Shown here piece by piece: positions 29,511-64,000 of a stretch of 64,000 bases of DNA. The first letter of the stretch is position 1, and every line of letters begins with the position of its first letter. The notes beneath the pieces are model-generated. The model did not search any database. It was not told where the DNA came from and worked only from the letters and a program-made list of their open reading frames with translations. The position numbers were made by a program, and so were the translations under genes. Location: contig JACKCT010000001.1 in the NCBI GenBank assembly GCA_020633895.1, positions 462,130 through 526,129 on the forward strand, read 5' to 3'. The stretch comes from Deltaproteobacteria bacterium (GTDB lineage Bacteria > Lernaellota > Lernaellaia > JACKCT01).

Positions 29511-29513
29511 GGC

Positions 29514-30323
29514 ATGAGCGACATTCCCTCGACAATCGAAGGCGACAAGCTCGTCATCGCCGGGCGCGAGTTTTCCTCCCGCCTGCTGGTGGGCACGGGC
29601 AAGTTCGAATCGCCGCAAATGATGGCCGCCGCGCTCGAAGCCTCGGGCAGTGAACTGGTGACCATGGCGCTGCGTCGCGTGGATCTGACCAGCCCGGACG
29701 ACTCGATGATGAACCACCTGAACCCGGACCGGTATCTGCTGTTGCCCAACACCAGCGGCGCGCGGGACGCGGAGGAGGCGGTGCGTCTGGCGAAGATGTC
29801 CCGGGCCGCCGGCGGTTTCGACTGGGTTAAACTGGAGGTCACGCCCGAGCCCAACTACCTGCTGCCCGACCCCATCGAGACGCTCAAGGCGGCGCGGGAA
29901 CTGGTCAAGCTCGGCTTCACCGTTCTGCCGTACATGAACGCCGACCCGATCCTCGCCAAGCATCTGGAAGACGCCGGTTGCGCGACGGTCATGCCCTTGG
30001 CCGCGCCGATCGGCAGCAATCGGGGCATGAAGACCAAGGACCAGATCGGCATCATCATCGAGCAAGCCGGTGTGCCGGTGGTGGTCGACGCGGGCTTGGG
30101 CGCGCCGTCCCACGCCGCCGAGGCGATGGAGATGGGGGCCGACGCGGTGCTGGTCAACACGGCCATCGCCGTGGCCGACGATCCGGTGCGCATGGCCGAG
30201 GCGTTTAAGATCGGCACCGTCGCGGGACGCATGGCGTATCTGGCGGGGCCGGGCGGCGAGTCGCGACTGGCGCGGGCCAGCAGTCCGCTCACCGGATTTC
30301 TGCGCACGGGGGAAACGTCGTGA
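29514..30323 (+). CDS. thiG: thiazole synthase
   Basis: 269 aa TIM-barrel ThiG signature ([29 protein letters not shown]). Confidence 0.9.
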
Positions 30324-31450
30324 CGCGCCCGTCGTTCGCCGATCGAATTCGCGGCCTGCCCATGGACGTGCTGCGCCGCCGTTTGGACGACGTCACCGAG
30401 GGCCAGGCCGCGGGCGCCGTTGCCGCGCCGCAAATCACCGACGCCATGATCCCCGCGCTGTTTTCCCGCGCCGCCCAAGGTCATTTGGAGACAATGGCCC
30501 GCCGCGCCGCCGCGATCACCGAGCGCCGCTTCGGCAAGGTTATCAATCTCTTCGCGCCCCTCTACCTGTCCAACGAATGCGCGAACATCTGCCTGTATTG
30601 CGGCTTCTCGATGAACGTGGACATCCCGCGCCGTTCACTGACAACGGACGAAGTCGTCGACGAGGCCGAGCACCTGCGCCGCCAGGGCTTTCGCCATTTG
30701 CTGCTGGTGTCCGGCGAACATCGAGGGGCGTACAGCCTGAATGCCATGGCCGACGCGGTGGAGGCGTTGCGCGGCCGGTTCGCGTCGGTTTCGATCGAGG
30801 TCTTTCCGATGGAGACGCCCGAGTATCGCCGCCTGGAAACCGCCGGGGTCGACGGACTGACGCTCTATCAAGAGACCTACGATCCCGACGTCTACGCGCG
30901 ACTGCATACGAAGGGTCCGAAGAGCCGGTATGAGTATCGACTGCACGCCATCGAAAAGGGCGGCGAGGCGGGATTTCGCACGCTGGGCATCGGCGCGCTG
31001 CTGGGACTGTCCGATTGGCGCGTCGAGGCGACCATGCTCGCGATGCACGCCCGCTATCTGGCCAAGCGATTTTGGAAGAGCCGCATCGCGATCAGCTTTC
31101 CCCGCGTCAATCCCCACGAGGGCGATTACACGCCGGAGCACGCCGTTTCCGACGCGGAACTGGTGCAGATGATCGTCGCGATGCGCCTCCTGTTGCCCGA
31201 CGCCGAACTCGTGCTTTCCACGCGGGAGCGAGCCGCGCTGCGCGATCACCTGGTGGGCCTGGGCATCACGCGGATGAGCGCCGGGTCCAAGACCAACCCC
31301 GGCGGGTACAAGGTCGAGCAGTCCTCGCTCAAGCAATTCGACATTTCCGACGAACGCACTCCCGAGCAGGTGGCGGCGATGATCGAATCGCGCGGCTTCG
31401 AGCCGGTGTGGAAAGACTTCGATCCCACCTTCCTTCACGGCCCCCTTTAG
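30320..31450 (+). CDS. thiH: 2-iminoacetate synthase (tyrosine lyase), radical SAM
   Basis: [10 protein letters not shown] Cx3Cx2C motif; ThiH/HydG family length and position in the thi operon; GTG start overlapping the thiG stop. Confidence 0.85.
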
Positions 31451-31466
31451 TTCGACACGGACGACC

Positions 31467-32177
31467 ATGACGACGATTGCCGAACGACGACAACGCCTGC
31501 GTGACGTGGACCTCTACGTCGTGACCAGCCGCGAGCACTCCGCCGGACGCACCAGCCTCGAAGTGCTTGACGCGTGTTTGGCGGCGGGTGTGCGCATGGT
31601 GCAGTTACGTGAAAAGACGTTGAGCGGCGATCAACTGCGCGATCTGGCGCGGGAGTTTCGCGCGCGGACGCGAGACGCGGGATGCCTGCTGATCGTCAAT
31701 GATCGCGTGGACATCGCCCTGGATGTCGACGCGGACGGGGTACATCTCGGGCGGGGGGACATGGCGATCGAGGAGGCGCGAAAGCAAGCGCCGAGTCTGC
31801 TCATCGGCGCCAGTTCTCACGACATGTATTCGGCGCTCAACGCGGAGGCGGCGGGCGCGGACTATGTGAACATCGGGCCGATTTTCCCCACCGGCACCAA
31901 GCCCGAGCACAAGGTCTTTCTCGGACCCGAAGCCGTCGGCCTGATCGGGATGCATCTGCATGTGCCGTTCACGTGCATGGGCGGGATCAACGAAACGAAC
32001 ATCGACCAGGTTCTCGACGGCGGGGCGCAGATCGTGGCCCTCGTCACCGCCGTGACCAAGGCGGACGACATCGAAGCCGCCGCCCGGTCACTGCGTCATC
32101 GGATTCTCGATCACCGCGCGCGCATTGCGGAAATGGAGCGCTCGGGTTCAAACCCCTGGGGCTTGGAAACGGAATAG
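31467..32177 (+). CDS. thiE: thiamine-phosphate synthase
   Basis: LYVVTSR...MVQLREK...LIVNDRVDIALDVDADGVHLG typical ThiE motifs. Confidence 0.85.
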   Translation: MTTIAERRQRLRDVDLYVVTSREHSAGRTSLEVLDACLAAGVRMVQLREKTLSGDQLRDLAREFRARTRDAGCLLIVNDRVDIALDVDADGVHLGRGDMAIEEARKQAPSLLIGASSHDMYSALNAEAAGADYVNIGPIFPTGTKPEHKVFLGPEAVGLIGMHLHVPFTCMGGINETNIDQVLDGGAQIVALVTAVTKADDIEAAARSLRHRILDHRARIAEMERSGSNPWGLETE

Positions 32178-49347: not shown

Positions 49348-50499
49348 ATGCGCTTTTCCCAAGACGCCGACGTTGCCTTTGTCATCCCCACGCGCAACCG
49401 CCGCGACCGCCTGCTAGCGACCTTGGAACGCCTGGGGGAGACGCCGGGACCGGACGTCGAGGTGGTTGTCGCCGACAACGCCTCGGACGACGGCACCGTG
49501 GAAGCCGTGCGGGAGGCCCATCCCCACGTTCGGGTTTTGGCGCTGGATTCCAACCGCGAGTCGATGGCGCGAAACGTCGCGGCGCAGGCAACCGGCGCTC
49601 GGGTGATTGTGATGCTCGACGACGATTCCTACCCCGAGGAAGGCGCGACCGAGGCGCTGGCGCGGGCGTTGGAGGACCCGTCGTTGGGCATCGCGGCGGC
49701 GATGGTGCGTTTGCCCGATGGCATCCGGGAGGAAGGCGGCGCGCCCCATGTGCCCATCGGATGCGGCATGGCCCTGCGTCGCGCGGATTTCCTCGCCCTC
49801 GGCGGATTCGCGCCGTACTACGGCACCTATGTCGAGGAATACGATCTGGCGATCCGCATGCTCGACCGGGGCCTGCGCGTCGAATACCTCCACAACGCCG
49901 TCGTAACGCACGAGCAAGGCGAGCGCGCGAGCTTCGATTTTCTCGTCGGACGCTTGATGCGCAACAACGTCTATCTGGCCTATCGCTTTTTTCCGGACGC
50001 CGACGCCCAGCGCTTCGCCGATTGGGCCTGCAAGCGCTACGCGGTTTTGGCCGATCAAAAAGGGGCGAAGGAAGGCTATCTGAACGCGCTTTCGCAGGTG
50101 AAAAAGGCGGTCAAGGACGGACGCCGCGACCGCTTCGACCTGGCGGACGAGGCGACGCTCGACATGGTGTTTCCCTATCGCCTGGCCCGTCGCCGCATTG
50201 CCGAAGCTCTGCCGGACGACGCCCGCCCGGTCGTTTTCCTGCGCGCGGGAAAAGAGATCAACGACCTCATCGCGGCGGCCCGCTCCCTGGACCACGACGT
50301 CTTCGCCGTCTACGACGACGGCCTTCTCTCGCGCCTGCGGGAAATCGACGGCGTCCCCGTGCGTCCTATCGCCGATTTTGTTTCCTTCGACGAACACCTG
50401 GTCATCGGCGGGCTCTCGCCGGGATTCATCGAAAACACGAAGCGCCTCGCCGTCGGCACTGATTGGCCGACACCGGTGGCGTTGGACGGCTCCGAATGA
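49348..50499 (+). CDS. glycosyltransferase family 2
   Basis: VAFVIPTRNRRDRL...VVVADNASDDGT...MLDDDS GT-A fold DxD signatures. Confidence 0.8.
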   Translation: MRFSQDADVAFVIPTRNRRDRLLATLERLGETPGPDVEVVVADNASDDGTVEAVREAHPHVRVLALDSNRESMARNVAAQATGARVIVMLDDDSYPEEGATEALARALEDPSLGIAAAMVRLPDGIREEGGAPHVPIGCGMALRRADFLALGGFAPYYGTYVEEYDLAIRMLDRGLRVEYLHNAVVTHEQGERASFDFLVGRLMRNNVYLAYRFFPDADAQRFADWACKRYAVLADQKGAKEGYLNALSQVKKAVKDGRRDRFDLADEATLDMVFPYRLARRRIAEALPDDARPVVFLRAGKEINDLIAAARSLDHDVFAVYDDGLLSRLREIDGVPVRPIADFVSFDEHLVIGGLSPGFIENTKRLAVGTDWPTPVALDGSE

Positions 50500-51644
50500 C
50501 GCAAAAGACCGCCCTGATCGTGACCGACGTGACCGCTCCGGGCGGCGTGGACACGTACATCGTCGCGCTGCACGACGCGGCGTATCGCGACGGTTGGGAT
50601 GTGCATGTGCTGATGGACAAAGGCGAGGGATCCGACCGCCTTTTTCGGACGCTGCATCGCCGGGGAGCACGGATCACCCGCGCGGGTCTATACCACCGGA
50701 CGCACGACGAAACGGCGCGGGCGGCGGCGACGGACGCCGTGCTGCATGACATTGCCCCGACCGTCGTCCATGCCGTTTGTCCGGCGCCCTGGAACACGGT
50801 GGTGCCTCGCGAGCGTGCGTTGGAGGCCGGAGCGAGGCTGATCTTCACGGAGCAGTATGTCGCGGAGGGATTCACCTTTGAGCCTTCCTTGAAGGAACGC
50901 ATCGACGAGCTTTACCGCCGCGCCGATCGCGCCATCGCTGTGAGCAAAAACAACCAACGTCTCCTCGCCGATATGTACGGCTTCCCGTCCGACAAATTGG
51001 TGCTCATCCCCAACGCCGTGCCCACCGAGGGGCCGCCCGCCAAATCGGTCATGGAGAAAGCCCGCGTCCTGGCCGATCTGGGATTGCCCGAACGCCCGCA
51101 CCAAGCCGTGTGCGTCGCGCGCCTGGACGACCAGAAGGGCATCGATGTGCTGGTGCAGGCGGCGGCTCGGCTGCCGGTGGAACTGCGTCGCGGGTTGTGC
51201 ATATCCGTTTTCGGCGACGGACCGAATCGCGAGGCCCTTTTCCAGATGGGCATGCGCGCCGGTGTGGGCGATGTGATGTACTACTGGGGTTGGCGCGAGA
51301 ACGCCGCCGAGATGATCGACGCGTTCGACCTGTTCATCCTGCCCAGCCGCTCCGAAGGCCAGCCCTTCGCCTTGCTCGAAGCCCTGGCGCGAGGCATTCC
51401 CACCATCGCGACGCGCGTCTCCGGCATCCCGGAAGTGCTCATGGACGGCCAAGGCGGCGATCTGGTCCCCCCCGACGACCCGGCCGCCCTCGCCATCGCC
51501 ATCGAAGCCTATCTGCGCGATCCAAGCATCCTGACGCAAAAATCCCGCGTCGGCCGCGCCCATGTGCGGACGTATCACGACCTGACAACGAATATGGCGA
51601 CGACGATGAAGTTGTGGCGGGGTGGGGTAGTCGGCACGGACTGA
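50496..51644 (+). CDS. glycosyltransferase family 4 (GT-B)
   Basis: C-terminal EGQPFALLEALARGIPTIATRVSGIPE GT4 motif; ATGA overlap with upstream GT2. Confidence 0.8.
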   Translation: MTQKTALIVTDVTAPGGVDTYIVALHDAAYRDGWDVHVLMDKGEGSDRLFRTLHRRGARITRAGLYHRTHDETARAAATDAVLHDIAPTVVHAVCPAPWNTVVPRERALEAGARLIFTEQYVAEGFTFEPSLKERIDELYRRADRAIAVSKNNQRLLADMYGFPSDKLVLIPNAVPTEGPPAKSVMEKARVLADLGLPERPHQAVCVARLDDQKGIDVLVQAAARLPVELRRGLCISVFGDGPNREALFQMGMRAGVGDVMYYWGWRENAAEMIDAFDLFILPSRSEGQPFALLEALARGIPTIATRVSGIPEVLMDGQGGDLVPPDDPAALAIAIEAYLRDPSILTQKSRVGRAHVRTYHDLTTNMATTMKLWRGGVVGTD

Positions 51645-51859: not shown

Positions 51860-52870
51860 CTAGCAGCCCGCCGTGTTTTCACAGCGTTTGCAGAGGAAAT
51901 CGTCGGGCGACTCGACTTGGCCCGTGACCATGCCGACGAGATTGCTGTAGGGGTCGGATTGGAAATATTCGACGAGGCTCATGTCGGCCAGGGACGGCAG
52001 TGCCGTTTCGCCATGGTAATCCATGCAGCACATGCGGATGCGGCCGTCGTAGAGGATGTGGATCCACTGGTCGACGCGCCAGCAGTGGAAGGGGTTGGCC
52101 GGGCCGATTTCCCGCACGCGCCCGATTTTGTTGAGATGGGCGTTGCGCTCGGTGCGTCGGATGGTCCCGGCCCGGTCGTGAAAAAGGAACGCGTCCACGT
52201 CAACGGTCGCCGGGTCGATGCCTTCGCGCTCGAGAACCCGCTCCCAATAGGCGCGATAGTCGGCCTTGCCGAAGTAGGTGATGTTGCCTTTCAGTGACGT
52301 TCCCGCGCCCCGTAGTTTCAAATTCAACCGCCCGCCTGATCGCTTGAACAACCGCACCAGATTCGCCGTCGCCCGCTCGTAGTCGAGCTTCATGATGAAT
52401 TCCATCGACGTTGAGTCGATGCCGTGGTGAGAGAGCCAGATCTCGTGGCGACGGCCGTCGAACGCGGCCAGGAGTTTGTCGATCACCTTGTCGGTCAGGG
52501 CCGCGCCGTTGGTGGAAATCTCGACGAGGGTGCCGGGGAAGGCGTCGTAGATGCGTTCGATGCGCTCGAAGATTTTCGGGTCGATCAACGGCTCCTGCAT
52601 CAAATAGGGGCAGACCTTGCCGTCGTTGATCGTCGCGCCGAAGGGCGCCAGGTCGTCGAGGATCTTCTCGAACAGCGCGTCGCTCATCCGCCCGGGATTC
52701 TGCGCGTGCCAGCTTTCCGAATACGGGCAAAACACGCAGTCCGCGTTGCAGCGGGAGTGCGTTTGGATCTGGACGTAACGGATCTTCGGCACACCCGGCG
52801 GCAAAGGGGCGAGCACATCATCGTGGATTTTTTCGGGAATCGCGGCCATGAAACCTCGCCTTATCGTCAA
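51860..52870 (-). CDS. radical SAM / SPASM-domain protein (paralog of the N-terminal domain of the 6422..14053 megaprotein)
   Basis: IQTHSRCNADCVFCPY (Cx3Cx2C), RMCCMDYHGE...LCKRCE line up with IQTTSRCNSGCVMCPW, LPCCMDWRRK...LCVGCE of the megaprotein. Confidence 0.8.
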   Translation of the reverse strand: MTIRRGFMAAIPEKIHDDVLAPLPPGVPKIRYVQIQTHSRCNADCVFCPYSESWHAQNPGRMSDALFEKILDDLAPFGATINDGKVCPYLMQEPLIDPKIFERIERIYDAFPGTLVEISTNGAALTDKVIDKLLAAFDGRRHEIWLSHHGIDSTSMEFIMKLDYERATANLVRLFKRSGGRLNLKLRGAGTSLKGNITYFGKADYRAYWERVLEREGIDPATVDVDAFLFHDRAGTIRRTERNAHLNKIGRVREIGPANPFHCWRVDQWIHILYDGRIRMCCMDYHGETALPSLADMSLVEYFQSDPYSNLVGMVTGQVESPDDFLCKRCENTAGC

Positions 52871-52915: not shown

Positions 52916-54553
52916 TCAGACGGCGTCGGCGACGGGCAGGGAGTCGGCCTCGCGAGGGGCGAGGATGGGGCGGTTGTTGAGCAAGCCGTCGACGATGAGA
53001 TCCAGCTCCGGGATGCGCCCTTCGGCCAATTCATCCAGCGACGAGATGCACAGCCGTGAGATTTCGAAGGGGCGGCTGGTCTCGAAGAACCGCAGTTGGA
53101 GGTGCGTTCGGTTGAGGAAGAAATAGAGATAGCGTCGCGCGATTTCGATTTCGTGTTTCGTCGGCGCCGAGAGGTCGGCGGGGGACTCGACCCAGCGCAG
53201 ATATTCGTCCACGGACGCGGGATGCCGTCCAAAGCCGCGATTCGCGAAGTGAGCGTCCCCGGCGATGATCGCCGGCACGCCGTGCAGAAGCGCTTCCAGG
53301 CCGATCTTCGAGGTGTAGGCGACCACGGCGTCGGACATTCGCAATAGTTCGTAGGAGCTGACGCGGTCGTCGTTGCGGACGATGCGCACGTTCGCGGGCA
53401 GCGGGTCGAATTTCGAGGCCAGGTGCCCGGCGACGCTCTCCCGCGAACGGTTGCCTTCCATGACCATGTCCTCGGCCGGGTGGGGGCGAATGACGACTTG
53501 CACATCGGTGCCGGCCAGGTGCGCGACCGTTTGCTCGACCCACTCCATCATCGAAAAGAACACCGTTCGCCGGTCCACGGCGGCGCCGTCCCAAGACACA
53601 TTGCTGAATAGCGTGACGACCGGTCGCGCCGGGTGCAGGTGGAGCATTTCGCGAATCGCGGCCGGATCGTCGACCGGATTCGGGTTGTAAAACGAGTCGC
53701 GATACTGCTCGCGAATCCACGCATCCAGGCGCGCGTTTTCCGCGTCCGACAGCGGCTCGTCGCGCCAAGCGTTCCACCCATCCGCGAAACGCAGCCGCGA
53801 AACGCGGTAGCGATTGTCGAAGCTCCAATACCCGCCGCTGCCGCAATAGCCGGGCAGAAAGCCCGATTCGTAACTGGCCACGCGCACGCCTCGGCGTTCG
53901 GCGACGGCGTAGAGCAGGTTGTACCAGAAGAAGTCGCCGTTCGGCGCGACGATCAGATCGTACGACGTCTCGTTGAGCAACGCTTCGTACGCGTCGATCA
54001 ACGTGATTGCCGAGGCCAGATACTTGCGCCAGGTTTCGGTGGCGAAGTCGTCGTCGGCGATGGCGTCGCGGCACAAGTGGCGCGAGACGGAGACCTCGCA
54101 CAATCTTCCGACGGGCAGGCCTCGGTGAGAAAAGTCGAAACACTCGCGGGTCGAAAGATGGCGCAAACTTTCGTGCGTCGCCTGCACCTGGCCGGGTCGG
54201 CGAAAGTCCTTGATCGAACGCACGGGAAAATCCAACGCTCCGGCAAGGCGCTGCGTTGTCGAGGCGCAGCCTTCGCAGATGAATTCGGGTTCAGGCCGGT
54301 CGATCGAACGATTGTTGCAGATCGGCAGATTGCGACAGGAAAGGAACTCGACCTCGCTTCCGTCCAGCCGCAGTCGGTGGGCAAGCATCAATTCGAACGT
54401 CAGCAGAAACGAGCCGCCGCGTAGGTTCGCGAACAGAACGCGAGGTCCGTGGCCGTGCCGAGGACGCAGTGCCGCCTTTTCGCGACACGCCCGCAACGCA
54501 TCGGCGAGCGCTCCAACAGGATCGTCGCTTAAAGCGAACCCGCCGTCCGCCAT
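52916..54553 (-). CDS. capsule polysaccharide biosynthesis-like protein (KpsS/LpsZ-type; putative glycosyl- or phospho-transferase)
   Basis: ~545 aa, Cys-rich N-terminal region, central GT-B-like region (RPHPAED..., VPAIIAGDAHF); family assignment tentative; start chosen at MADGG. Confidence 0.45.
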   Translation of the reverse strand: MADGGFALSDDPVGALADALRACREKAALRPRHGHGPRVLFANLRGGSFLLTFELMLAHRLRLDGSEVEFLSCRNLPICNNRSIDRPEPEFICEGCASTTQRLAGALDFPVRSIKDFRRPGQVQATHESLRHLSTRECFDFSHRGLPVGRLCEVSVSRHLCRDAIADDDFATETWRKYLASAITLIDAYEALLNETSYDLIVAPNGDFFWYNLLYAVAERRGVRVASYESGFLPGYCGSGGYWSFDNRYRVSRLRFADGWNAWRDEPLSDAENARLDAWIREQYRDSFYNPNPVDDPAAIREMLHLHPARPVVTLFSNVSWDGAAVDRRTVFFSMMEWVEQTVAHLAGTDVQVVIRPHPAEDMVMEGNRSRESVAGHLASKFDPLPANVRIVRNDDRVSSYELLRMSDAVVAYTSKIGLEALLHGVPAIIAGDAHFANRGFGRHPASVDEYLRWVESPADLSAPTKHEIEIARRYLYFFLNRTHLQLRFFETSRPFEISRLCISSLDELAEGRIPELDLIVDGLLNNRPILAPREADSLPVADAV

Positions 54554-57500
54554 GATCCCTGACCCTTTCGTAGCGCCCGTTTCGCGGGGCCGTAGTTGAT
54601 TTCGAATCCGCCGCCGGCCACGTCGATGCGGATCGGCCGCTCCATCGTATAAATATCCGCGAACCATTCCGGCCCCAGCGTCGCGACCTTTTCGTCCGCC
54701 TCCACATCCACCATGTCATGCACGTCCTGCGCGGTCCAAAGACCGTCCAGCTCCCGCACCCAGACCACCGACTCGTACGAATCCACCAGCGCCATGCGAC
54801 CGTTCGGATGCACCGCGATGTCTTCAATGAAGTCGATGCGGCGGTCGGGCAGAGGGATCGTCTCCCACTTGCGGAAACCGCGCCCGAAGCGCACCGTTTG
54901 CGGTGGTTCGGCGTCGACGACGTACAATCCCTCCCGCGTCACGGCCAGCGGGGTCGAGGCGTCAAAGACGATGCCCAGGTCGACCCATTTGCTGTTTTCC
55001 CGGTCCCACACACGTACGCGTTGTGACTCGGAATGCAGCACATAGACGCGGAAGTGCATCCAGTTGTGGACCGAGCGGATGAAATCGCCGGCCATGTCCT
55101 CGAACGCGCACGGGTCGTCCTCGAACGCCGCTCGGGCCGTCGCCACCTCGGCCATGCGATTTTCGTAGTCCTTGAGCATGCGGAAGCTTTTCTGCGTCAC
55201 GGTCCCGCGCGGCGACGATTTCATCCAGTCTGACAGGCGCTCCCACGACCGCTGGGCCGCCTCCGCGTCCCAACAACGCAGAGCGCATTCGAGAGCCAGA
55301 CGCAAGGGATAGCCGGTCAGATCCCGTTCGTTGATCGCCCGATCGACAACCTGAAACGCCCGCTGGGGCCAGCCTTTTTGCAGCAGACGGATGACGTCCA
55401 CGTACAGGTCGGTCTCCGGCAGCTTGTGCTGCTTCATGGCCTCGGCGGTCAGGACACGATGGCGCTCCATGTTCGGGCGGTGGTGGCGCGTATAAATGGC
55501 CATGCGTCGGTCGCGGCGGAAGGCGCTCAAGTCGGTGCGACGACGCACGCCGTCGCGACGATGACGATAGGCGAATTGGGCGCCGTCTTCTCCGGCGAGC
55601 CAGGACTGCATCAGGCTTAGGCCGTTGGAGACGCGAGTGTCATCCGGCGATTTCCACGCGGCGTCCACGGCAACGGACACGCGTGCGATCGCCTCCGCGG
55701 ACAGGGCACGGGGCCAGGTCGAAGCGCCGAAGCGGTCGTGATAGGCGTCGAGCCGCGCGATCTTCACGGCCAGGACACCCGCCTGGATCGGTGTCGTCGT
55801 TACGACGCGCGCCATCATCGCTTGCAGCAGCGCGAGGTCGCGACGGCGCGGATCGTCGTATTCCGCGTCCACGCTGGCGGCCACGGAAATGACGAGTTCG
55901 CGCAAGTGGTCGTCATCGACGGTGCATAGATATTCGTCGAGCAACAGCGCGGCGAAATATGTCAAAGCGCGCGTCAGGCCGACATCGTACGTCGCCCATT
56001 CGCGGATGATTTCCTGTTGGCGCGCGACGACCTCTCCGCGTAGTTCTTCGTCGGCGGCGTAGCGATCGAATAGGGCGGCGAGCTGTTTTTCGTCGTCGAA
56101 CAGGCATTCGTCCATTTCGAGCAGGCCGATCGACGGCGCTCGGCGAGCCAAAAAGAATCCGCCCGCCATCAAGCCGTCCACCAGGCGCGGGTGCTCGAGC
56201 TGGTATTGGTTGACGTGCAGGTTGATCGGCGTCTCGGCGAACAGACGCGCCAGTTCGGGGCCGTTGTCGATCACTCCGCGTGCGAACTTCGACAACTTCG
56301 GATGGGCGTCCCAGCGACGGCCGTAGAGCCCGATCTTGTCGGTTTTTGCGGCCAGCGTTTCAATCGCCCGATGGCGTGACGAGGCGCCGACGATGTTGTC
56401 GAAAACCTCGACGACCAGATTGTCGTTCACATGGGCGCCGAGCTTTCTCGCTTCGAACGCGCTCTTGATTTCGCGATAAATCGTGTCGAACGACGGCAGA
56501 TCTTCGCCGCATTCCAGGCGCGCCAGCAGTTCGTCGACAAAATCCTGGAGCGCGTCGGCGATTTCCGGCTTGCCTTCCCGGTAGCGCTGCACCATCGTCA
56601 CAGCGCCTTCACGGGCGTCTTTGCTGATATTGCTGACGAACGCGACGTCGTGCTCGCCGTTCCCGGCGTCGTCCGATTCGGCGTAGATCTCCGGATTGGT
56701 CAGCGGCGGTAATTCGAACAGCCGCTCCGGCGCCATTCCCACCGTTTCCAGCGATCGCGTAAACCCGACGCACAAATCCCGTCGGCCCAACAGGCGGATC
56801 GACGGGCGCGTGTGGATCGACGGCATGTGGTCCTGGGCCCAGCAGACGAACGGCAGATTCTTCGGATAAATCTTCGCGTACTCGCCGCGCAGATGATCGA
56901 CGAAAATCAACCAATCCGGACGAAACTCGTCCAACTCCGCCAGGAGCCACGCGCCGTTGAGGCGATCAACCGGCGTCGCTTCCTCGATCACGCGCACCGT
57001 TCCGCCCATCGCCTCCAACGCCATGCGAATATCCCGCACGGAGTATTGGATGAAATACGAATGGCGGTTGGAGATGATCATCGTCTTCAGTCCGCCCGGC
57101 GTCAGGAAGCGGGACATCATCGTGCGCGCGTCCAGGGCGTCGTAGTAGGCATCGATTTCGACCTTGCGGCGGCCGGTGATATTCGTCACCTGCGTTTTCG
57201 CGCGACGCATCGATTCCAGCAGCGCCCCGGCATCGAACGCGCCCAGCGGCAGAACTCGATCCGGAAACGGCTTGGCCAGATCGCCGGTGAAGAAGGCCTC
57301 CAGGTCGTTGCCGGCCTCGGGTCCGATAAAGAAGTACAAACGCCCGGACGCAATCGCGTCGGCAAAATCGTGGGCCGCCATGTTCAAGCGGAAGACGTCC
57401 ATCGTCGGCTCGACGATATACACCGGCGTTTTCGGCCCGCCGTCGACCGGCGGCTGGGCTTCGAGGCAAGCGAGGATCTCGTAACCGGCGCGCATGCCGA

Positions 57501-57753
57501 GCAGGAGAGGCGGGCTCTGCTTTCCGGCGGCGGCGACGTGGTTGGCGGCAAACGTCGCGGCAACCTGGGCGGCGTTGTCGATGGGCGAGAGCGCCGTCAG
57601 GCCCAGGGGATCCTTGCGCACGATGACCCATTCACCGGCGTTATTTTGCGTGGCCTGGTATCGCGAGTCGGGTTCGGCCGCCAGCAGTCGTTCAACGACA
57701 TGCGGCTGGTGGGCGTGCAGCGCGGTGAGGTTGGATTCGAGAAAGTTGCTCAT
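54529..57753 (-). CDS. large (1075 aa) multidomain protein with N-terminal DUF115 (Maf/MptE-like) domain
   Basis: N-terminus MSNFLESNLTALHAHQPHVVERL matches the conserved start of DUF115/motility-accessory-factor-type proteins; GGAG RBS 9 nt upstream; long C-terminal extension of unknown function. Confidence 0.55.
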   Translation of the reverse strand: MSNFLESNLTALHAHQPHVVERLLAAEPDSRYQATQNNAGEWVIVRKDPLGLTALSPIDNAAQVAATFAANHVAAAGKQSPPLLLGMRAGYEILACLEAQPPVDGGPKTPVYIVEPTMDVFRLNMAAHDFADAIASGRLYFFIGPEAGNDLEAFFTGDLAKPFPDRVLPLGAFDAGALLESMRRAKTQVTNITGRRKVEIDAYYDALDARTMMSRFLTPGGLKTMIISNRHSYFIQYSVRDIRMALEAMGGTVRVIEEATPVDRLNGAWLLAELDEFRPDWLIFVDHLRGEYAKIYPKNLPFVCWAQDHMPSIHTRPSIRLLGRRDLCVGFTRSLETVGMAPERLFELPPLTNPEIYAESDDAGNGEHDVAFVSNISKDAREGAVTMVQRYREGKPEIADALQDFVDELLARLECGEDLPSFDTIYREIKSAFEARKLGAHVNDNLVVEVFDNIVGASSRHRAIETLAAKTDKIGLYGRRWDAHPKLSKFARGVIDNGPELARLFAETPINLHVNQYQLEHPRLVDGLMAGGFFLARRAPSIGLLEMDECLFDDEKQLAALFDRYAADEELRGEVVARQQEIIREWATYDVGLTRALTYFAALLLDEYLCTVDDDHLRELVISVAASVDAEYDDPRRRDLALLQAMMARVVTTTPIQAGVLAVKIARLDAYHDRFGASTWPRALSAEAIARVSVAVDAAWKSPDDTRVSNGLSLMQSWLAGEDGAQFAYRHRRDGVRRRTDLSAFRRDRRMAIYTRHHRPNMERHRVLTAEAMKQHKLPETDLYVDVIRLLQKGWPQRAFQVVDRAINERDLTGYPLRLALECALRCWDAEAAQRSWERLSDWMKSSPRGTVTQKSFRMLKDYENRMAEVATARAAFEDDPCAFEDMAGDFIRSVHNWMHFRVYVLHSESQRVRVWDRENSKWVDLGIVFDASTPLAVTREGLYVVDAEPPQTVRFGRGFRKWETIPLPDRRIDFIEDIAVHPNGRMALVDSYESVVWVRELDGLWTAQDVHDMVDVEADEKVATLGPEWFADIYTMERPIRIDVAGGGFEINYGPAKRALRKGQGSWRTAGSL

Positions 57754-57764
57754 TTTCAACTCCG

Positions 57765-58787
57765 CTAACGGCGGTGCGCAACGGCGGCCGAGCGAGGCGC
57801 CGTGCGGGGGAGGCGAGAGGCCAGATTCCAAATTGTCGAAAAACCCAAGAGGGGCTGCATCCGTTCGATGAGACGCCAGGAACGCGCCCCGGCCAGATAC
57901 GCGATCTCCTTGAGGCGCGCGCGGCCGATGTCCGGGCGTCCGTAGGCCAGCGCAAACTGCGCCTCGGCGAGGGCGTCTTCGATGAGCTGGTTGCGCAGGC
58001 GCGGCGTCGCGTTGTCATGACCGAGAAGGCGTCGTTCGGCGTCGAACAATCGTTGAACAGCCGCGGCGGCGTCGTATTTCGCCGCGTTAATCGTCGGGCG
58101 AGTTTGCCAGAACGCCCGCCGGACGGCGTCCGAGTTTGAATCCTGCGTCGTGTTGTGCCGCGTCGAAACGCTCGCCTCGTGACGCCGATAATGCAGCAGC
58201 ACCTCGGGCACATTGGCGAAGCGCGCGCGGTCGGCGAGGCTCAGCCACAGGGCGTAGTCTTCCGCATGGGGAACGTCGGGGTAGCCGCGATCGGCAATCA
58301 CCTCGCGACGCATCATGACACTGGGATGGGCGAACGGCGGATGCAGCGCCACGCGGCGCGCCAGCCATTCGGGCGAGCAGGGGACGTGCCATTTGTCGAC
58401 AACATTGTCGTCCCCGTCGATGACGGCGATGAAGCTGCCGGCGATGCCGATGCCCGGTTGCTCGTCCAAAAACGCGACCTGCCGCTCCAGGCGCGTGGGC
58501 AGGGCGATGTCGTCGGCGTCCATGCGCGCGATGTAGCGCCCTCGGGCCAGGGCGAGCCCGGCGTTGAGTGTCGCGACAAGTCCGGCGTGGGCCCGTCGAA
58601 TGTAGCGGACGCGCGAGTCGTCGCCGGCACAGGCAATATCGGCCGAGGCGTCGGTGGAGCCGTCATCGACGATCAGCAATTCGAAGTCGTCGAACGTCTG
58701 ACCGAGAATGCTCGCGACGGCCGACGCCAGGTATCGCTCGCCGTTGTGCACCGGCATCAGGACGCTGACGATGGGCGCCTTGCTCAT
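57765..58787 (-). CDS. glycosyltransferase family 2
   Basis: MSKAPIVSVLMPVHNGERYL...ELLIVDDGSTD GT2 signatures; ATGA overlap with the upstream GT4 stop. Confidence 0.8.
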   Translation of the reverse strand: MSKAPIVSVLMPVHNGERYLASAVASILGQTFDDFELLIVDDGSTDASADIACAGDDSRVRYIRRAHAGLVATLNAGLALARGRYIARMDADDIALPTRLERQVAFLDEQPGIGIAGSFIAVIDGDDNVVDKWHVPCSPEWLARRVALHPPFAHPSVMMRREVIADRGYPDVPHAEDYALWLSLADRARFANVPEVLLHYRRHEASVSTRHNTTQDSNSDAVRRAFWQTRPTINAAKYDAAAAVQRLFDAERRLLGHDNATPRLRNQLIEDALAEAQFALAYGRPDIGRARLKEIAYLAGARSWRLIERMQPLLGFSTIWNLASRLPRTAPRSAAVAHRR

Positions 58788-60115
58788 GGCGTCGCCTCCG
58801 ACGTCGAAGGCGAACCGGCCGCCGAGTTGGCGTGCATCGAGTGGATGAGAGCCGCCAGGGAGGGCGCCGCCGTGCGCCACGTCTGGGGATGCACCCGCGC
58901 GGTGCGTTGCGCCAGATCGGAAACGCCGCCGCATTGGTCGATCACCCGGCGGTAATATTCCAATCTCCACTGAGCCGCGCGAGCGGGGGTGTAGCGGTCG
59001 CGCACGCGCAGGTAGGTCAGCGCCGCCAGCGTATCCCGCAGGCGATGGTTGCGACGCAGCCGCAGCATGGCCTCGGCCAGGTCCGCCGGGTCGTCGGGCT
59101 CGACGAACACACCCGTCTCGCCGAGCATTTCCACCATGCCCGTGCCGTACGTGGCGATCACCGGCCGCCCGGCGCTCATCGCCTCCAGGCAGACGTTCGG
59201 AAAGTTTTCGAACAATGACGGAAAAACGCAGAAGCTGGCGCGCCGGTAGCTCTCGGCCAATTCGTGCCGGGGAATCGCGTCGAGAAAACGCACTCGCCGA
59301 CGTTCGTGATCGGTGAGCAGACCCTGCAAGTAGTCGCGCATCGAGCCGCCGCCCGGCGCCGTATTCGTGTCCCGGCCGATCAGCGTAAAGACGACGTTCG
59401 CGTCCAGGGCCAACATCGCCTTGGCCGCCTGAATCAACGTGACCACGCCCTTGCGATGCTCCAGTCGGCCGACAAACAGGATTTCGTCGCCGATCGGCGG
59501 CGTATAACCCTGGATGAAACCGTCGGCGTCGTAGGGGTGGGGCACCACCTCCACATCCCCGCGATGCACATCGTCGGCGAGATGGTCGATCATCGCCCGC
59601 GACGGGGCGCAGACGCCGTCCGCCGCTTCAATCGGCAGGCGTTCCAAATGCTTCCAGGCGGGGGTGTCGGAATGATTGAGGGCGGCGACGACATAGTCGG
59701 GCGTGTGCAGGTTCACGACCGTCGGCACGCGCAGCGCCGGGTCGCCCAGCGCCATCCAGCCGGTCGCCAGGCATTCCGGGATTTCAACGATGTCCAATTC
59801 GCCGCGCTGCAAAAACTCACGCAGTTGGCGGCGCATGATGGACGCCAAATGAATCCACGTGCCCGCCTCGGCGAAACGGCCGATCAGGCCCCGGGCCAGC
59901 GGCTCGGGAGGGTCGAAGGGCGCTCGATGGACATGCACGCCGCTGGCGTCGATGGTCGTGGGATCGTCCGGCCGGCGGATGGTGAAGATGTGCACCTCGT
60001 GGCCGGATTGGGCGAACGCGCGGCTGATCTGCTCGACGTACGTGCCGATGCCGCCGCCGAAAAACGGCGGATATTCGTGCGTCACGAATCCGATACGCAG
60101 GCGCGGTCCGTTCAT
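58784..60115 (-). CDS. glycosyltransferase family 4
   Basis: Real coding part starts MNGPRLRIGFVTHEYPPFFGGGIGTY (443 aa); the ORF-track's longer Arg-rich N-terminal extension is rejected; C-terminal CVFPSLFENFPNVCLEAMSAGRPVIAT GT4 motif. Confidence 0.8.
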   Translation of the reverse strand: MNGPRLRIGFVTHEYPPFFGGGIGTYVEQISRAFAQSGHEVHIFTIRRPDDPTTIDASGVHVHRAPFDPPEPLARGLIGRFAEAGTWIHLASIMRRQLREFLQRGELDIVEIPECLATGWMALGDPALRVPTVVNLHTPDYVVAALNHSDTPAWKHLERLPIEAADGVCAPSRAMIDHLADDVHRGDVEVVPHPYDADGFIQGYTPPIGDEILFVGRLEHRKGVVTLIQAAKAMLALDANVVFTLIGRDTNTAPGGGSMRDYLQGLLTDHERRRVRFLDAIPRHELAESYRRASFCVFPSLFENFPNVCLEAMSAGRPVIATYGTGMVEMLGETGVFVEPDDPADLAEAMLRLRRNHRLRDTLAALTYLRVRDRYTPARAAQWRLEYYRRVIDQCGGVSDLAQRTARVHPQTWRTAAPSLAALIHSMHANSAAGSPSTSEATP

Positions 60116-61783
60116 CCCACCGCCTCCCGCACCGGGAAGTGATACAGGCGCACCACTTCGATGCCCGCGTTCAGGAAGATCTCGCTGTTGGCCCACAGAG
60201 TCGATTCGATCGTGTCCGACGAGAGTACCACCGCGTCCAGATCCATCCCGACCGCGTCCGATCGCGAGACGATGGGCCATTCTCCGAGCGTCAGTCCGCG
60301 CTGATCCGGGCTGTCGTCGATGACGGCGAGGATGCGCAGGCCGTGTTGCTCCAGATAGGACTGGGAAGACAGCAGCTTTCGTGTGTGCTGACCGGCGCCG
60401 TAGAAGGCGATGCGCTTGATGCCGCGTTCGGGAGCGACTTTTTGCACGATGCGTTCGGCGACGGGATGCACCCCCTGCGTCACCTCGTCGACGCGGCGGT
60501 GGAGCATCAGATCGACCGCGTCGGCGATGTCCGGCATCACCGCTTCCCAGACCGCGTTGTCCACCCGCGCCAAACGGCGGTCCAGGCTCGACTGCCCCGC
60601 GTACGCGCCGACCACGTGCTCGTAAAACGCGACCCGCGCGGCGGCGATTTTGGCCGGGGCGAAGTTTTCGCGAACGCGGCGCGCGACTTTCGAACCGATG
60701 GCGGCGCACCGTTCGGGCGCGTTCCAAAGGGTGAGGATCTTGGCGGCCAAACCTTCGGCGTCGTCCGGGTCCACGTACACGCCGTCGTCGGCCAGCATGT
60801 CGACCATGCCCGAGCGACGCCCGGCGATCACGGCCCGTCCGGCGGCCATCGCTTCCAGACAGACGTTCGGGAAATTTTCGAAGCGGGAGGGGAACACGCA
60901 GAATCGCGCCTCGGCCAGGTGCGTCGCGAGGACGGCGCGGTCGACCTTGCCGACGAAACGCACCCGCTGGGCCGTCGCGTCCGTCAGCCGGGACGTGAGA
61001 TATTCGCTCATGGAACCGCCGCCGGGCGCGTCGGGCGTGTCGGCGCCGATCAGGTCCAGATGCACATCCGGCGCGATTTGCCACACCCGCTCCATGGCGT
61101 CCATCAGCGTCAGGATGCCTTTGCGCGGCTCCAACCGGCCGACGAACGCGATGCGCTTACTGTCCGCGGGCCAAGGGGACGGCTCGCGGCAGAAGGCGTC
61201 GGCGTCGAAGGGATGGGGCAGGACACGGGGCGTGCCGACCAGGCGCACGCGACCGTCGATGTAGTCGGCCATGGCCTGGCAGGGCGCGCAAACGGCGTCG
61301 GCCAACGCCATCTCCAACCATTCGAACGACGTGCCGCGCAGGGCGGGCGTTTGGTTGAGTTCGTTGATGAAATCCGACGGCGTGTGGCAGTTGACGACCG
61401 ACGGCGTCGTCCACTCGGCCGACAGCAGCGTCAGCCAGCCCGGCGCTTCCCATTCGGGAAACTCGACAATGTCCAGCCGCGTCGAGGCCGCGAAATCCAA
61501 AAGGGCGTCATGGAACAAGGAGGCCGCGTGCAGCCATTCGTTGGCCGCGTGCCAGAAACCGGAAAGCCCGCGCGCGTCGGCGGCGGGCGGGTCCCAGCGT
61601 AATCGGTGGACATGGACGCCGGGCGGGTCGCCGTCGGCGGGGCGGTCGTCGGGCCGTCGGATCGTGAAGACGTGCACCTCGTGTCCCTGTTCGGCCAGCG
61701 CGCGGGAGACTTCGGCGACATACGTGCCGACCCCGCCGCCGAATTCGGGAGGGAACTGACGGGTGACGAATCCGATTTTCACG
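60112..61783 (-). CDS. glycosyltransferase family 4 fused to a C-terminal PglD/NeuD-N-terminal-like Rossmann domain
   Basis: Tandem paralog of 58784..60115 (KIGFVTRQFPPEFGGGVGTY); GTG start with GGAGA RBS, overlapping upstream stop (GTGA); extra ~150-aa C-terminus IAFYGAGQHTRKLL...ILAVIDDSPDQRG...PIVS. Confidence 0.7.
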
Positions 61784-63137
61784 CGGAAATCTCCATGGCC
61801 GCTTTCATGATGGACCGGCGTCGGTCGTGCGTTTTGCGCAGTTGGGAGACGAGATCCTGCGATTCCTGGGACCACGCCGTTTCGTCCGGCGCCGTCGCGT
61901 CAGCGTAAATTTTCACGAACGCCGCCACGTCCTCGTCGATGCCGCGCGGGCACACGGAGGCGTCGGCCAGGCTCTCGAAGAGCTTGTCGTCGTCGGCCAG
62001 ACGCGCCACGCGCTCGGCCAAGGCTTTCGCGTCGCCGGTGGGGAAGGTCAGGCCGTTTTGCCCGTCGCGCACCAGGCACGTCATGCCCGGCAGATCGGTA
62101 CAGACGACCGGTGTGCCCAGGCTCAGCGCTTCGAGGATCGCGACCGGCGCATTCTCCGGGCTGATGGACGGCAGTACGAGCACGTCGATGTCGCGATACA
62201 GCGCCAGCAACGCAGAAGGTTCGAAGCTTCCGGCCAACTCCACGTTGGGCAGTTTGCCGGCTTCCACATAGAGCCCGGCGTCGCGGGGATTCTTGTTCCA
62301 GATTTCCGGCTCGCCGTAGATCTTCCAGACCAGGTTGTCCCGATCGGCCAGCGCCTTCATCGCGTCAAAGAGCGCTTCCACGCCCTTGATGCGGTTCCAG
62401 CGGCCGACGAAGGCGAAGCGCCGCTTGGCCGAGGGCTTTTTCGTGAAGTCGGCCTTGGCGATGGACTCGGGCATGCCGTAGGGCCAGACCTGGATCTTCT
62501 CCCCGGACGCTCCGGCGAAGCTGATGTAGTCGGCCATGATCGGCGAGGGGCAGTGGTGCATCGCGTAGCCGGTGGCCAGGGTGCGGATGATCTTCGAGCG
62601 GTACTCGGAGACGAACTCCCAATCGTCGTCGTCCACGTCCGGGTAGCAGCCCCGGCACTCGGCCTTGGGCGGCATGGCGCAAAGCGACGCGTCGGGCAGG
62701 AGGAACCGGCCGTTGCGGCACGACCACAGAAAGTCCACGTGCGTTCCGACGACGGGGATGTTTTCGTGCATGGCGGCCAGGGCGACCGAACTCATGAACC
62801 AGTGATTGGTCACATGCACCACATTCGGCCGGGTGGCGCGAAAATGCAGACGAGCCTCGTCATAGAGCTCGGGGTAGAACTGCAACGCGTACAGCGGCGC
62901 GGGAACCTTCGGAAAATCGAACGCGAAGCGATGGACGGGCACGCCGTCGTAGCGCCCCTCGATCGCCCGGCCGCGCCGGTAATGGAAATCCAGCGTGGTC
63001 ACGCTCGCGTCGTGTCCCTGGGCGCGCATGGCACGGGCCAGATGATGGGTATAAACCTCGGCTCCGCCGTAAACTTCCGGCAGATACCCGGTAATCGCGT
63101 ATTGAATCCGCAAGTTATTCCTCCCGGTCTTTCTCAA
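61779..63137 (-). CDS. glycosyltransferase family 4
   Basis: 452 aa, GT-B layout, C-terminal LVLPSISPENAPVAILEALSLGTPVVCTDLPG motif. Confidence 0.75.
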   Translation of the reverse strand: MRKTGRNNLRIQYAITGYLPEVYGGAEVYTHHLARAMRAQGHDASVTTLDFHYRRGRAIEGRYDGVPVHRFAFDFPKVPAPLYALQFYPELYDEARLHFRATRPNVVHVTNHWFMSSVALAAMHENIPVVGTHVDFLWSCRNGRFLLPDASLCAMPPKAECRGCYPDVDDDDWEFVSEYRSKIIRTLATGYAMHHCPSPIMADYISFAGASGEKIQVWPYGMPESIAKADFTKKPSAKRRFAFVGRWNRIKGVEALFDAMKALADRDNLVWKIYGEPEIWNKNPRDAGLYVEAGKLPNVELAGSFEPSALLALYRDIDVLVLPSISPENAPVAILEALSLGTPVVCTDLPGMTCLVRDGQNGLTFPTGDAKALAERVARLADDDKLFESLADASVCPRGIDEDVAAFVKIYADATAPDETAWSQESQDLVSQLRKTHDRRRSIMKAAMEISA

Positions 63138-63182: not shown

Positions 63183-63935
63183 TTACAGAAGGATGACCGG
63201 GCGTCGGTCCGATGTGACGGCGCGACAGCGATGGACCATGTCGTCGGCGAATTGGGACGACGGGATGAGGATGGCGGCGGCGGGCGTCTCGACGACCCGT
63301 TCCATGGAAACGACGGGAATGTCGAACAGGCGCGTGCCGTGGAGGGCGTCGTCGTCGTCGATGATGGCGCAGACGCTGCCGCCCAGCTCCGGCGCCAGGC
63401 AGAACAGCCGCCAGGTCGACAGCCCCGCTCCGTAGACGGCGAAGGGCACCTTGGTCGCCAGGCCGTTGTGGAAACGGCGGATCAGCCGAGCCGAGGGGGC
63501 CAAGCTGGGGAATTCGTTCTCGATTTGCTCGGCCGGGCGGCTTTCGATGATCGCCTGGGCCAGCCGGATCATGGGCGCGGTCATGTCCGAATCCAGCGCG
63601 CTGCGTCGCCCGGCGAAGAACGCATGAAAAGCCAATTCCAAGGCTTCGACCGGCAGATCGTCGTCGCGGCCGTCGGCAATCGCGCTTTCGGAAAGATTAA
63701 GCCAGCGCATGACGGAGCACGACACGGACGGGTGCTCGGCACGCAAGGCGAATTCGATCAGCCGCTGGGGGAGGTGGCGCAATTCGACGTCGGAAAGCTC
63801 GGAGCCTTGAGCGCTCCACCAGTCAATCGGCCCCTCCGGCCCGCGCAGCAAATCCATGACGGCCACGGCGGCGTCCCGGCGGCGGTCGTTGTCCGCGTCC
63901 AGTTCGTTGTACCAATCCCACAGGTCGAGATGCAT
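63183..63935 (-). CDS. hypothetical protein with C-terminal PglD/NeuD-N-terminal-like Rossmann domain
   Basis: C-terminus FAVYGAGLSTWRLFCLAPELGGSVCAIIDDDDALHGTRLFDIPVVS is paralogous to the C-terminal domain of 60112..61783. Confidence 0.5.
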   Translation of the reverse strand: MHLDLWDWYNELDADNDRRRDAAVAVMDLLRGPEGPIDWWSAQGSELSDVELRHLPQRLIEFALRAEHPSVSCSVMRWLNLSESAIADGRDDDLPVEALELAFHAFFAGRRSALDSDMTAPMIRLAQAIIESRPAEQIENEFPSLAPSARLIRRFHNGLATKVPFAVYGAGLSTWRLFCLAPELGGSVCAIIDDDDALHGTRLFDIPVVSMERVVETPAAAILIPSSQFADDMVHRCRAVTSDRRPVILL

Positions 63936-64000
63936 CTTGAGTAGGGCCTGGCGCTCGGGCGAGGTCAGATCCCGGTCGGCCAGCAGGCCGCGGACCTTCG

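Follow-up and report, generated by a model that had tools for sequence, protein, structure and literature searches.

A predicted Twitch-type radical SAM enzyme at the end of a glycosyltransferase gene run, and its paralog in a megaprotein of the same genomic window

What does a radical S-adenosylmethionine (SAM) enzyme (rSAM) contribute at the end of a long run of glycosyltransferase genes, and is it connected with a second rSAM-rich locus nearby? These questions are raised by a stretch of 64,000 nucleotides (nt) from a Deltaproteobacteria bacterium (contig JACKCT010000001.1, positions 462,130 to 526,129 of the forward strand), which is referred to in its full length as the window, with positions counted from its first letter. 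The gene under study lies on the minus strand within 51860..52870, in a region of glycosyltransferase genes at 49-63 kb, and its product resembles the N-terminal domain of a very large protein (the megaprotein) encoded in an operon at 0-16 kb. It appears quite likely that the enzyme acts on a carbohydrate or glycoconjugate, and the balance of the evidence leans toward a BtrN-like Twitch rSAM with one auxiliary cluster that works inside glycan biosynthesis together with glycosyltransferases. As judged from sequences and models, its most likely task would be the modification of a sugar during surface-glycan synthesis.

The initial annotation of this DNA had proposed that the subfamily acts on a glycan or glycoconjugate. 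This proposal is supported here by conserved gene neighbourhoods, by fusions to GT2, MptE-like, and GT4 glycosyltransferases that occur in both clades of the subfamily, and by BtrN as the nearest relative of solved structure. Its extension to a functional link between the two loci of the window is not supported, as set out below.

The gene and the predicted class of its product

The open reading frame (ORF) 51860..52870, from which the analysis started, runs unbroken on the minus strand and carries the sequences IQTHSRCNADCVFCPY, IRMCCMDYHGE, and LCKRCE, as initially annotated. Its GC contents at the three codon positions (0.58/0.42/0.83) match those of true genes in this window of 63% GC, and it is a genuine coding gene. 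An ORF coding for 336 amino acids (aa) does exist, but the TTG start at 52870 on which this length depends is probably too far upstream; the ATG at 52849, with the sequence GAGG 5 nt upstream, is favoured and yields 329 aa. The 329-aa product is 100% identical, at equal length, to the protein P0001 of a deltaproteobacterial metagenome-assembled genome (MAG) at NCBI, whose sole name is 'SPASM domain-containing protein'. A scan for terminators and promoters around the gene detected none. The gene and its predicted functional parts are as follows.

51860..52849, minus strand: gene of the Twitch-type rSAM enzyme, 329 aa (ATG with ribosome-binding site, Pfam, AlphaFold2 model)
52727..52750, minus strand: CX3CX2C motif (C34, C38, C41) for the SAM-binding [4Fe-4S] cluster (ortholog alignment A1 and alignment with the BtrN core)
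51881..52084, minus strand: C-terminal Twitch-like auxiliary-cluster domain with C256, C274-C275, and C320-x-x-C323 (alignment A1, profile against BtrN)

Two Pfam models match above their cut-offs, namely Radical_SAM (PF04055, 36.2 bits versus 29.5) and SPASM (PF13186, 28.7 bits versus 21.5; residues 263-330 of the 336-aa ORF). The class of the enzyme is indicated more precisely by its conserved cysteines, as judged from an alignment of 34 orthologs with 49-61% identity to the target (alignment A1). The triad C34-x3-C38-x2-C41 is invariant in 34/34 of them and aligns to the rSAM core of BtrN, and beyond this triad only five cysteines are conserved, C256, C274, C275, C320, and C323. SPASM domains bind two auxiliary clusters and contain seven to eight conserved cysteines (PMC9012708), whereas the Twitch domain is a shortened version of SPASM with one auxiliary cluster (PMC9012708, PMC10337720), as found in BtrN with its single, Cys4-ligated auxiliary cluster (PMC9012708, PMC10337720). 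Five additional cysteines leave room for one auxiliary cluster, not two, and the target family thus falls short of the cysteine count of a two-cluster SPASM protein. Sequence and fold features of a Twitch protein are present: the five-cysteine pattern, the hairpin cysteine and terminal CxxC motif aligning with those of BtrN, and BtrN as the top structural match. The target is therefore predicted to be a BtrN-like Twitch rSAM with one auxiliary [4Fe-4S] cluster and not a two-cluster SPASM maturase. The label 'SPASM' of the initial annotation is correct in that the Pfam model scores above its cut-off, but it is imprecise in view of just five extra conserved cysteines.

Sequence and fold comparisons point to the same relative. 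BtrN, the 2-deoxy-scyllo-inosamine (DOIA) dehydrogenase of butirosin biosynthesis (PDB 4M7T), is the best match in the PDB by sequence (phmmer E=9e-7, profile E=1.2e-11), and the family profile 'GkirlCCmdyh...ickrC' is aligned to 'GNVLPCFEDF...LCKNC' of BtrN. An AlphaFold2 model built on alignment A1 (mean predicted local distance difference test, pLDDT, 92.7; predicted template-modelling score, pTM, 0.90) again retrieves BtrN as the top Foldseek match in the PDB (E=7e-13, template-modelling (TM) score 0.72 normalised to the length of BtrN). DesII, a nucleotide-sugar rSAM, ranks second and is followed by SuiB, anSME, EpeE, MoaA, and viperins; CteB is also among the matches. In both BtrN and the target, the CX3CX2C core is followed by a short C-terminal domain, in which a beta-hairpin cysteine and the terminal CxxC align residue for residue. 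The target is longer, with 329 aa versus 246-270 residues in the PDB chains of BtrN, and has extra helices. Its family also shows the invariant motifs SHHG (residues 140-143) and HDRA (residues 224-227, part of an FHDRAG consensus) in alignment A1, and neither SHHG nor HDRAG occurs in the segments of BtrN that align with it. Finally, the two differ in genomic context, which consists of glycosyltransferases and cytidine monophosphate (CMP)-sugar cassettes for the target and of aminoglycoside clusters for BtrN. The resemblance may therefore concern a possible mode of action rather than family membership, and an assignment of the target as a BtrN ortholog (DOIA dehydrogenase) was rejected at about 15% identity and with no aminoglycoside genes among the Pfam-scanned genes of the window.

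DesII, BlsE, and AprD4 act on sugars or nucleotide sugars in glycan or glycoside pathways. Besides DesII as the second-best fold match, BlsE gives a weak sequence match to the target, but the NCBIfam BlsE model scores 15.5 bits against a cut-off of 400, and no family-level similarity exists. The lengths and accessory domains of DesII, BlsE, and AprD4 are all unlike those of the target. An identity as MoaA (GTP 3',8-cyclase) was likewise rejected, with the respective NCBIfam models scoring 15-21 bits against cut-offs of 231-325; the 'MoaA' names found at JGI are automated.

The subfamily and its glycosyltransferase partners

The resemblance to the megaprotein that had been noticed initially is borne out by proper alignments and extends beyond the generic rSAM core. 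A BLASTP comparison of the target with residues 1-326 of the megaprotein gives 28% identity over 311 aa (E=2e-27), spanning from the CX3CX2C motif to the terminal CxxC (megaprotein residues 15-298), and profile-profile comparison (hhalign) of alignment A1 with an alignment of 23 relatives of the megaprotein N-domain (alignment A3) gives a probability of 100% and E=1.8e-47 over 275 columns. The cysteine pattern is the same in both families (C24/C28/C31, C225, C245-C246, C292, and C295 in A3 numbering). Among the remaining rSAM genes of the operon at 0-16 kb, the rSAM-SPASM gene at 1932-3056 matches the target profile with an hhalign E value of 1e-6. The partial rSAM gene at the edge of the window had been taken for a third member of the subfamily, but it matches the target only in the Cys-rich tail (BLASTP E=0.024 over 67 aa; hhalign of the target profile E=0.016, probability 2.8%). 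This similarity is generic and the protein falls into a separate cluster, so that it was rejected as a member. The two genes are thus assigned as follows.

6422..7336, plus strand: N-terminal Twitch rSAM domain of the 2543-aa megaprotein, true paralog of the target (BLASTP, hhalign, cysteine pattern)
2..1003, plus strand: partial rSAM-SPASM gene, outside the target subfamily (BLASTP, hhalign, clustering)

Bit-score clustering was performed with 134 sequences, including MoaA-like and other SPASM proteins and the two other rSAMs of the window. The target clade (38 sequences) is distinct from the clade of the megaprotein N-domain (71 sequences), and the two merge with each other before either joins any other sampled rSAM group. 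The target and the megaprotein N-domain thus belong to one subfamily apart from the other sampled rSAM and SPASM proteins. Both clades share the CX3CX2C and C...CC...CxxC patterns, the motifs MSD, YLM-EPL-D, TNG, and RAG, and fusions to glycosyltransferases. They differ in sequence (25-33% identity), in the motifs SHHG and HDRAG, which are not conserved in the megaprotein-N family (alignment A3), and in their partners, which are B12-binding rSAMs (B12-rSAM), carbamoyltransferases, GT4, and PMT_2 for the megaprotein-N clade and MptE-like proteins, CTP_transf_3, and GT2 for the target clade. The differences in motifs of the active-site type suggest that the paralogy is old, and a shared substrate is not implied by it.

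A profile search over 1.84 billion representative proteins (clusters at 50% identity) returned 144 clusters at E<=1e-30 and 2630 at E<=1e-10, and about one quarter of the best 150 clusters are multidomain proteins. As assigned by Pfam scans and BLAST against both window paralogs, the fusions are distributed over the two clades as follows.

Target clade, GT2 at the N-terminus, with or without TPR: P0221, P0222, P0229, P0233, P0241, P0245, P0272
Target clade, MptE-like: P0231
Target clade, MptE-like and GT2: P0258
Megaprotein-N clade, two GT1 domains: P0354, P0357
Megaprotein-N clade, GT4: P0304
Megaprotein-N clade, B12-binding rSAM units: P0284, P0299, P0306, P0315, P0321

Domain fusions of this kind usually indicate a shared pathway. 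The fusions to glycosyltransferases constitute strong evidence that the rSAM shares its pathway with a glycosyltransferase, and the two are probably part of the same complex. Members of the megaprotein-N family also occur as stand-alone rSAMs of about 290-400 aa (for example P0121) besides those fused to B12-rSAM arrays or GT4. Metagenomes repeatedly contain fused proteins similar to the megaprotein, with lengths of about 780-1820 aa, among them P0306, P0321, and P0315, which were scanned with Pfam, and P0312, which was classified by length and BLAST only. In addition, distant megaprotein-N relatives of about 290 aa (about 38% identity) pair up with a 730-aa PMT_2 protein (ArnT-like GT-C) in a conserved unit of two genes at L039:8001-11101 and L040:8001-11075.

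The genomic context of orthologs, which had been recommended for inspection, was compiled for about 30 distinct loci from tables of called genes and from scanning one genome for each GTDB species, and neighbours were counted by seed-based tblastn within 6 kb of the rSAM gene at 30 loci. MptE-like/DUF115 and GT2 genes each occur at about half of these, and further partner types recur at lower frequency.

GT2: 15/30 loci
MptE-like/DUF115: 14/30 loci, mostly directly adjacent
CTP_transf_3: 11/30 loci
2-Hydroxyacid dehydrogenase (2-Hacid_dh): 8/30 loci
FkbM-type methyltransferase: 7/30 loci
Short-chain dehydrogenase/reductase (SDR): 7/30 loci

The closest orthologs (L009 and L041 with 61%, L042 with 57% identity) share a tightly packed cassette of GT2, cyclase (PF04199), CTP_transf_3, 2-Hacid_dh, SDR, and rSAM genes, followed by a gene for either an MptE-like protein or a nicotinamide adenine dinucleotide (NAD)-dependent epimerase. 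The Aminicenantes loci L028 and L030 contain an equal set of genes in another order. The cassette loci are located as follows.

L042:2211-8234
L041:4997-11010
L009:62-4611
L028:4729-12536

Seed matches of several cassette genes also lie near the rSAM gene in Planctomycetes (L029), Alphaproteobacteria (L010), and Desulfovibrionaceae, and an Arcobacter locus additionally contains NeuB as well as two ATP-grasp ligases. All cassette proteins stay below the NCBIfam cut-offs; for the cytidylyltransferase, the closest model is PseF, with 83 bits versus 206. The Minicystis locus is an exception, with a second rSAM-SPASM and a kinase near the ortholog, together with a polysaccharide deacetylase, GT28, and GT4.

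The island at 49-63 kb and the operon at 0-16 kb

The whole region at 49-63 kb is rich in glycosyltransferase genes. Frame analysis and Pfam searches agree with the initially described gene order, in which the rSAM gene closes a minus-strand glycosylation run; it is the last gene of the run and lies 66 nt downstream of a KpsS-like gene. The other genes of the island were assigned partly by the GC content of third codon positions (GC3) and are listed below.

49348..51644, plus strand: convergent GT2 (49348-50499) and GT4 (50463-51644) genes, downstream of the rSAM gene (Pfam, GC3)
52916..54667, minus strand: KpsS/KpsC-like Capsule_synth protein, directly upstream of the rSAM gene (Pfam PF05159, E=4.4e-8, 33.4 bits versus a cut-off of 20)
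54529..57831, minus strand: large glycosyltransferase-like protein of about 1075-1100 aa (Pfam Glyco_trans_1_2, E=8.4e-10)
57765..58970, minus strand: GT2 glycosyltransferase (Pfam Glycos_transf_2, E=2.8e-31)
About 58784-60130, 60112-61875, and 61779-63137, minus strand: three consecutive GT4 genes (Pfam Glyco_transf_4 and Glycos_transf_1 in each; coding GC3)

The GT4, extended GT4, GT4, GT2, and KpsS-like genes of the initial annotation are thereby recovered, the 'GT4-fusion' being the gene at 60112..61875 with a C-terminal extension of about 190 aa without annotation. The 'DUF115 giant' of the same run was not confirmed. An identification of the large protein as DUF115/MptE-like was rejected with no such Pfam domain at E<=0.1, no tblastn match, and an hhalign E value of 0.52 against the MptE-like partners of the orthologs. 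The protein probably starts at the ATG at 57753 (MSNFLESNL...), 12 nt past the stop codon of the GT2 gene; it gives a Maf_flag10_N match below the threshold (E=0.0068), and its C-terminal part of about 450 aa has no Pfam match. A search with its N-terminal 480 aa against 5.8 billion proteins returned zero matches, with the self-match missing too. The KpsS-like protein shows weak NCBIfam matches to surface-carbohydrate biosynthesis families. At the other end of the run, a minus-strand ORF at 63183..63998 with coding GC3 and no Pfam match extends it to the window edge, and the operon may continue past 64 kb. No other sampled locus combines a KpsS-like with a large glycosyltransferase-like protein, and a search of the window for cytidylyltransferase, 2-Hacid_dh, and MptE-like genes was negative.

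The operon at 0-16 kb encodes an rSAM-SPASM, a nucleoside diphosphate (NDP)-sugar epimerase/dehydratase, a second rSAM-SPASM, a carbamoyltransferase, a B12-rSAM, the megaprotein, and an FAD (flavin adenine dinucleotide) oxidoreductase. The megaprotein itself is a single ORF of 2543 aa (6422..14053, plus strand) with five rSAM domains, namely one Twitch rSAM and four B12-binding rSAM units, with low-complexity Asn/Gly/Ser linkers between them. The closest relative of this operon is the syntenic locus L037, where the ortholog of the N-domain (P0121, 75% identity) is a separate gene of 324 aa followed by four B12-rSAM units; upstream of it lie a GT4 gene and a 776-aa fusion of GT1 with rSAM/SPASM. 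At L038, the ortholog stands beside GT1, a 959-aa GT4-rSAM fusion, and two epimerases. The fused rSAMs of both loci (L037:560-2890, 776 aa; L038:3847-6726, 959 aa) are paralogs of the partial rSAM family of 2..1003 (35-38% identity), and this second, unrelated rSAM lineage is thus also tied to glycosyltransferases.

These data bear on the initial proposal that the 0-14 kb operon and the 49-63 kb island form one pathway, in which the former tailors the glycan of the latter. Both loci are sugar-related, the 0-14 kb operon contributing an NDP-sugar epimerase/dehydratase and a carbamoyltransferase, and the paralogs share their fold and cluster motifs, but a common pathway appears quite improbable in the light of the following observations. 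Between the loci lie about 35 kb with genes of unrelated function (16-49 kb), among them those for PD40 repeats, an amidotransferase, an acyl-CoA dehydrogenase, thiC-thiG-thiH-thiE, an SDR, DUF255, two pectinacetylesterase-like proteins, a spermidine synthase, an acyltransferase, a peroxiredoxin, and a nitroreductase. The gene sets are not shared either, since among the approximately 30 target-family loci a carbamoyltransferase is present at 0 and a B12-rSAM at 1, while L037 and L038 contain GT4 and glycosyltransferase-rSAM fusions of their own and no target-clade gene within 10 kb. The clades also differ in fusion partners and conserved motifs. As the syntenic relatives carry their own glycosyltransferases, a module of the megaprotein type appears to supply these itself. 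The two loci consequently look like independent sugar-tailoring modules, each with a descendant of one ancestral Twitch rSAM, and a link between their products is not supported by the paralogy. Within the intervening region, the thiamine cluster occupies 27518..32177 on the plus strand (ThiC, ThiG, a ThiH-like rSAM with a BATS domain, and ThiE), and the two pectinacetylesterase-like genes are tandem paralogs (PF03283; 36951..39697, minus strand) beside the gene for the protein with a spermidine-synthase domain.

Substrate, mechanism, and competing explanations

A working scheme for the enzyme may be drawn up from its predicted clusters and its partners. The [4Fe-4S] cluster at the CX3CX2C motif would cleave SAM to a 5'-deoxyadenosyl radical, which would then take a hydrogen atom from a sugar carbon. 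The substrate is probably anionic, and five arginines that are invariant in the target family (R226, R232, R246, R258, and R322 in alignment A1) would fit such a substrate; candidates are a nucleotide-linked sugar of the CMP or NDP type, a polyprenyl-phosphate-linked sugar, or a residue of a growing glycan. The Cys4 auxiliary cluster would accept the second electron, and the outcome might be a ketone, formed from C-OH in a BtrN-like oxidation, or else an epimerised or dehydrated product of the same radical. BtrN performs a two-electron oxidation of a carbohydrate-like substrate with one Cys4 auxiliary cluster (PMC9012708, PMC10337720). That the target carries out specifically this type of oxidation is possible and remains rather doubtful. 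Neighbouring reductases of the SDR and 2-hydroxyacid-dehydrogenase types and transferases would process and install the product. In the window, the enzyme would serve the glycosyltransferase island at 49-63 kb, and the megaprotein N-domain would represent an ancient paralog in a separate sugar-tailoring module rich in B12-rSAMs.

One competing explanation is a SPASM-type peptide maturase that acts on a peptide or protein, as in the biosynthesis of peptides that are synthesized on the ribosome and modified post-translationally (RiPP) or in the manner of anSME and AlbA. With the maturases anSME, AlbA, PqqE, and SuiB, the target has in common a Pfam SPASM match above the cut-off and, in the first half of that domain, the fold; SuiB, anSME, CteB, and EpeE are among its fold matches, and one automated name at JGI is 'sulfatase maturation enzyme AslB'. 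Yet SPASM domains bind two auxiliary clusters (PMC9012708), for which the five extra cysteines of the target family are too few, and the respective NCBIfam models reach 16-20 bits where cut-offs of 268-445 apply. The target further lacks a peptide-recognition domain, as it begins directly with the rSAM core without an N-terminal extension of the RiPP recognition element (RRE) type, no ORF of the size of a RiPP precursor flanks the gene, no sulfatase occurs among the Pfam-scanned genes of the window, and the partners and fusions are glycosyltransferases. A function in peptide maturation thus appears highly improbable.

Two further explanations stay within glycosylation and differ in the substrate. 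The rSAM might modify not the sugar but an acceptor protein of the flagellin or S-layer type, or mature its partner glycosyltransferase. Known MptE-like (Maf-type) enzymes are protein O-glycosyltransferases, and a fusion with a glycosyltransferase is equally compatible with an action on the acceptor of the latter. Little probability is assigned to this alternative, because BtrN and BlsE, its closest relatives of solved structure in terms of sequence, are sugar enzymes with small-molecule substrates, the cassette contains enzymes of the nucleotide-sugar type (cytidylyltransferase, SDR, 2-Hacid_dh, and epimerase), and neither a flagellin nor a Maf gene was detected in the island of the window. 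Instead of a soluble nucleotide sugar, the substrate might also be a lipid or be linked to one, for instance a membrane lipid or a polyprenyl-phosphate sugar. This would agree with the GT2 fusions, which could be polyprenyl-phosphate glycosyltransferases, with the two-gene units that distant sister-clade members form with PMT_2 (ArnT-like GT-C) enzymes, which are users of lipid-linked donors, and with a SAR324 ortholog whose gene overlaps an MMPL/RND transporter gene at the stop codon of the latter. Such a substrate appears unlikely as well, since no membrane segment is evident in the model and the commonest partners, CTP_transf_3 and MptE-like proteins, point to CMP-activated donors; moreover, it overlaps with the preferred reading, in that a lipid-linked sugar is still a glycoconjugate.

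Several observations weigh against a sugar-modifying Twitch rSAM with a glycan role. The identity to BtrN is only about 15% and the TM score on the query length is 0.56, and no NCBIfam model matches at its cut-off, the best being a partial spiro-SPASM match of 51.6 bits versus 250. The sample of contexts is small (about 30 loci), with crude ORF calling, and includes deviating cases without a glycan context: the SAR324 ortholog (L002:7033-10987) starts on the stop codon of the MMPL/RND transporter gene, which is preceded by a TetR regulator; a planctomycete copy lies in a prophage-like region of a Planctomycetaceae MAG (L007:1178-15385) with an adjacent methyltransferase, a phage tail-tube protein, and an integrase; and one ortholog copy is isolated. 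The window itself is without the partner types of the orthologs (cytidylyltransferase, 2-Hacid_dh, SDR, and MptE-like), and the local substrate may differ.

With these reservations, the target family is best described as a sugar-tailoring Twitch rSAM family without a curated name. No curated family was found for it, and a full-text search of incomplete coverage, which leaves a prior description possible, found no paper describing either the family or a link between rSAMs and glycosyltransferases. Tentatively, the enzyme may represent an undescribed radical step in surface-glycan synthesis or protein glycosylation, with a physical coupling to transferases of the GT2 and MptE-like (Maf) types. 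It would then belong, in most lineages, to a conserved seven-gene cassette (GT2, cyclase, PseF-like cytidylyltransferase, 2-hydroxyacid dehydrogenase, SDR, rSAM, and MptE-like) for the synthesis and installation of a new CMP-activated sugar or sugar acid, with carriers among deltaproteobacterial MAGs, Desulfovibrionaceae, Aminicenantes, Planctomycetes, Alphaproteobacteria, and Arcobacter.

To our knowledge, sugar-tailoring rSAM enzymes are known mainly from antibiotic pathways, as represented by BtrN, DesII, and AprD4. The two rSAM-rich loci of the window should be annotated as separate sugar-tailoring modules and not as one pathway. The most useful leads are the glycosyltransferase fusions and the conserved cassette, which offer a testable handle on the sugar modification. 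If the proposed role is true, many uncultured lineages would use sugar-tailoring rSAM chemistry in the ordinary assembly of their cell-surface glycans.

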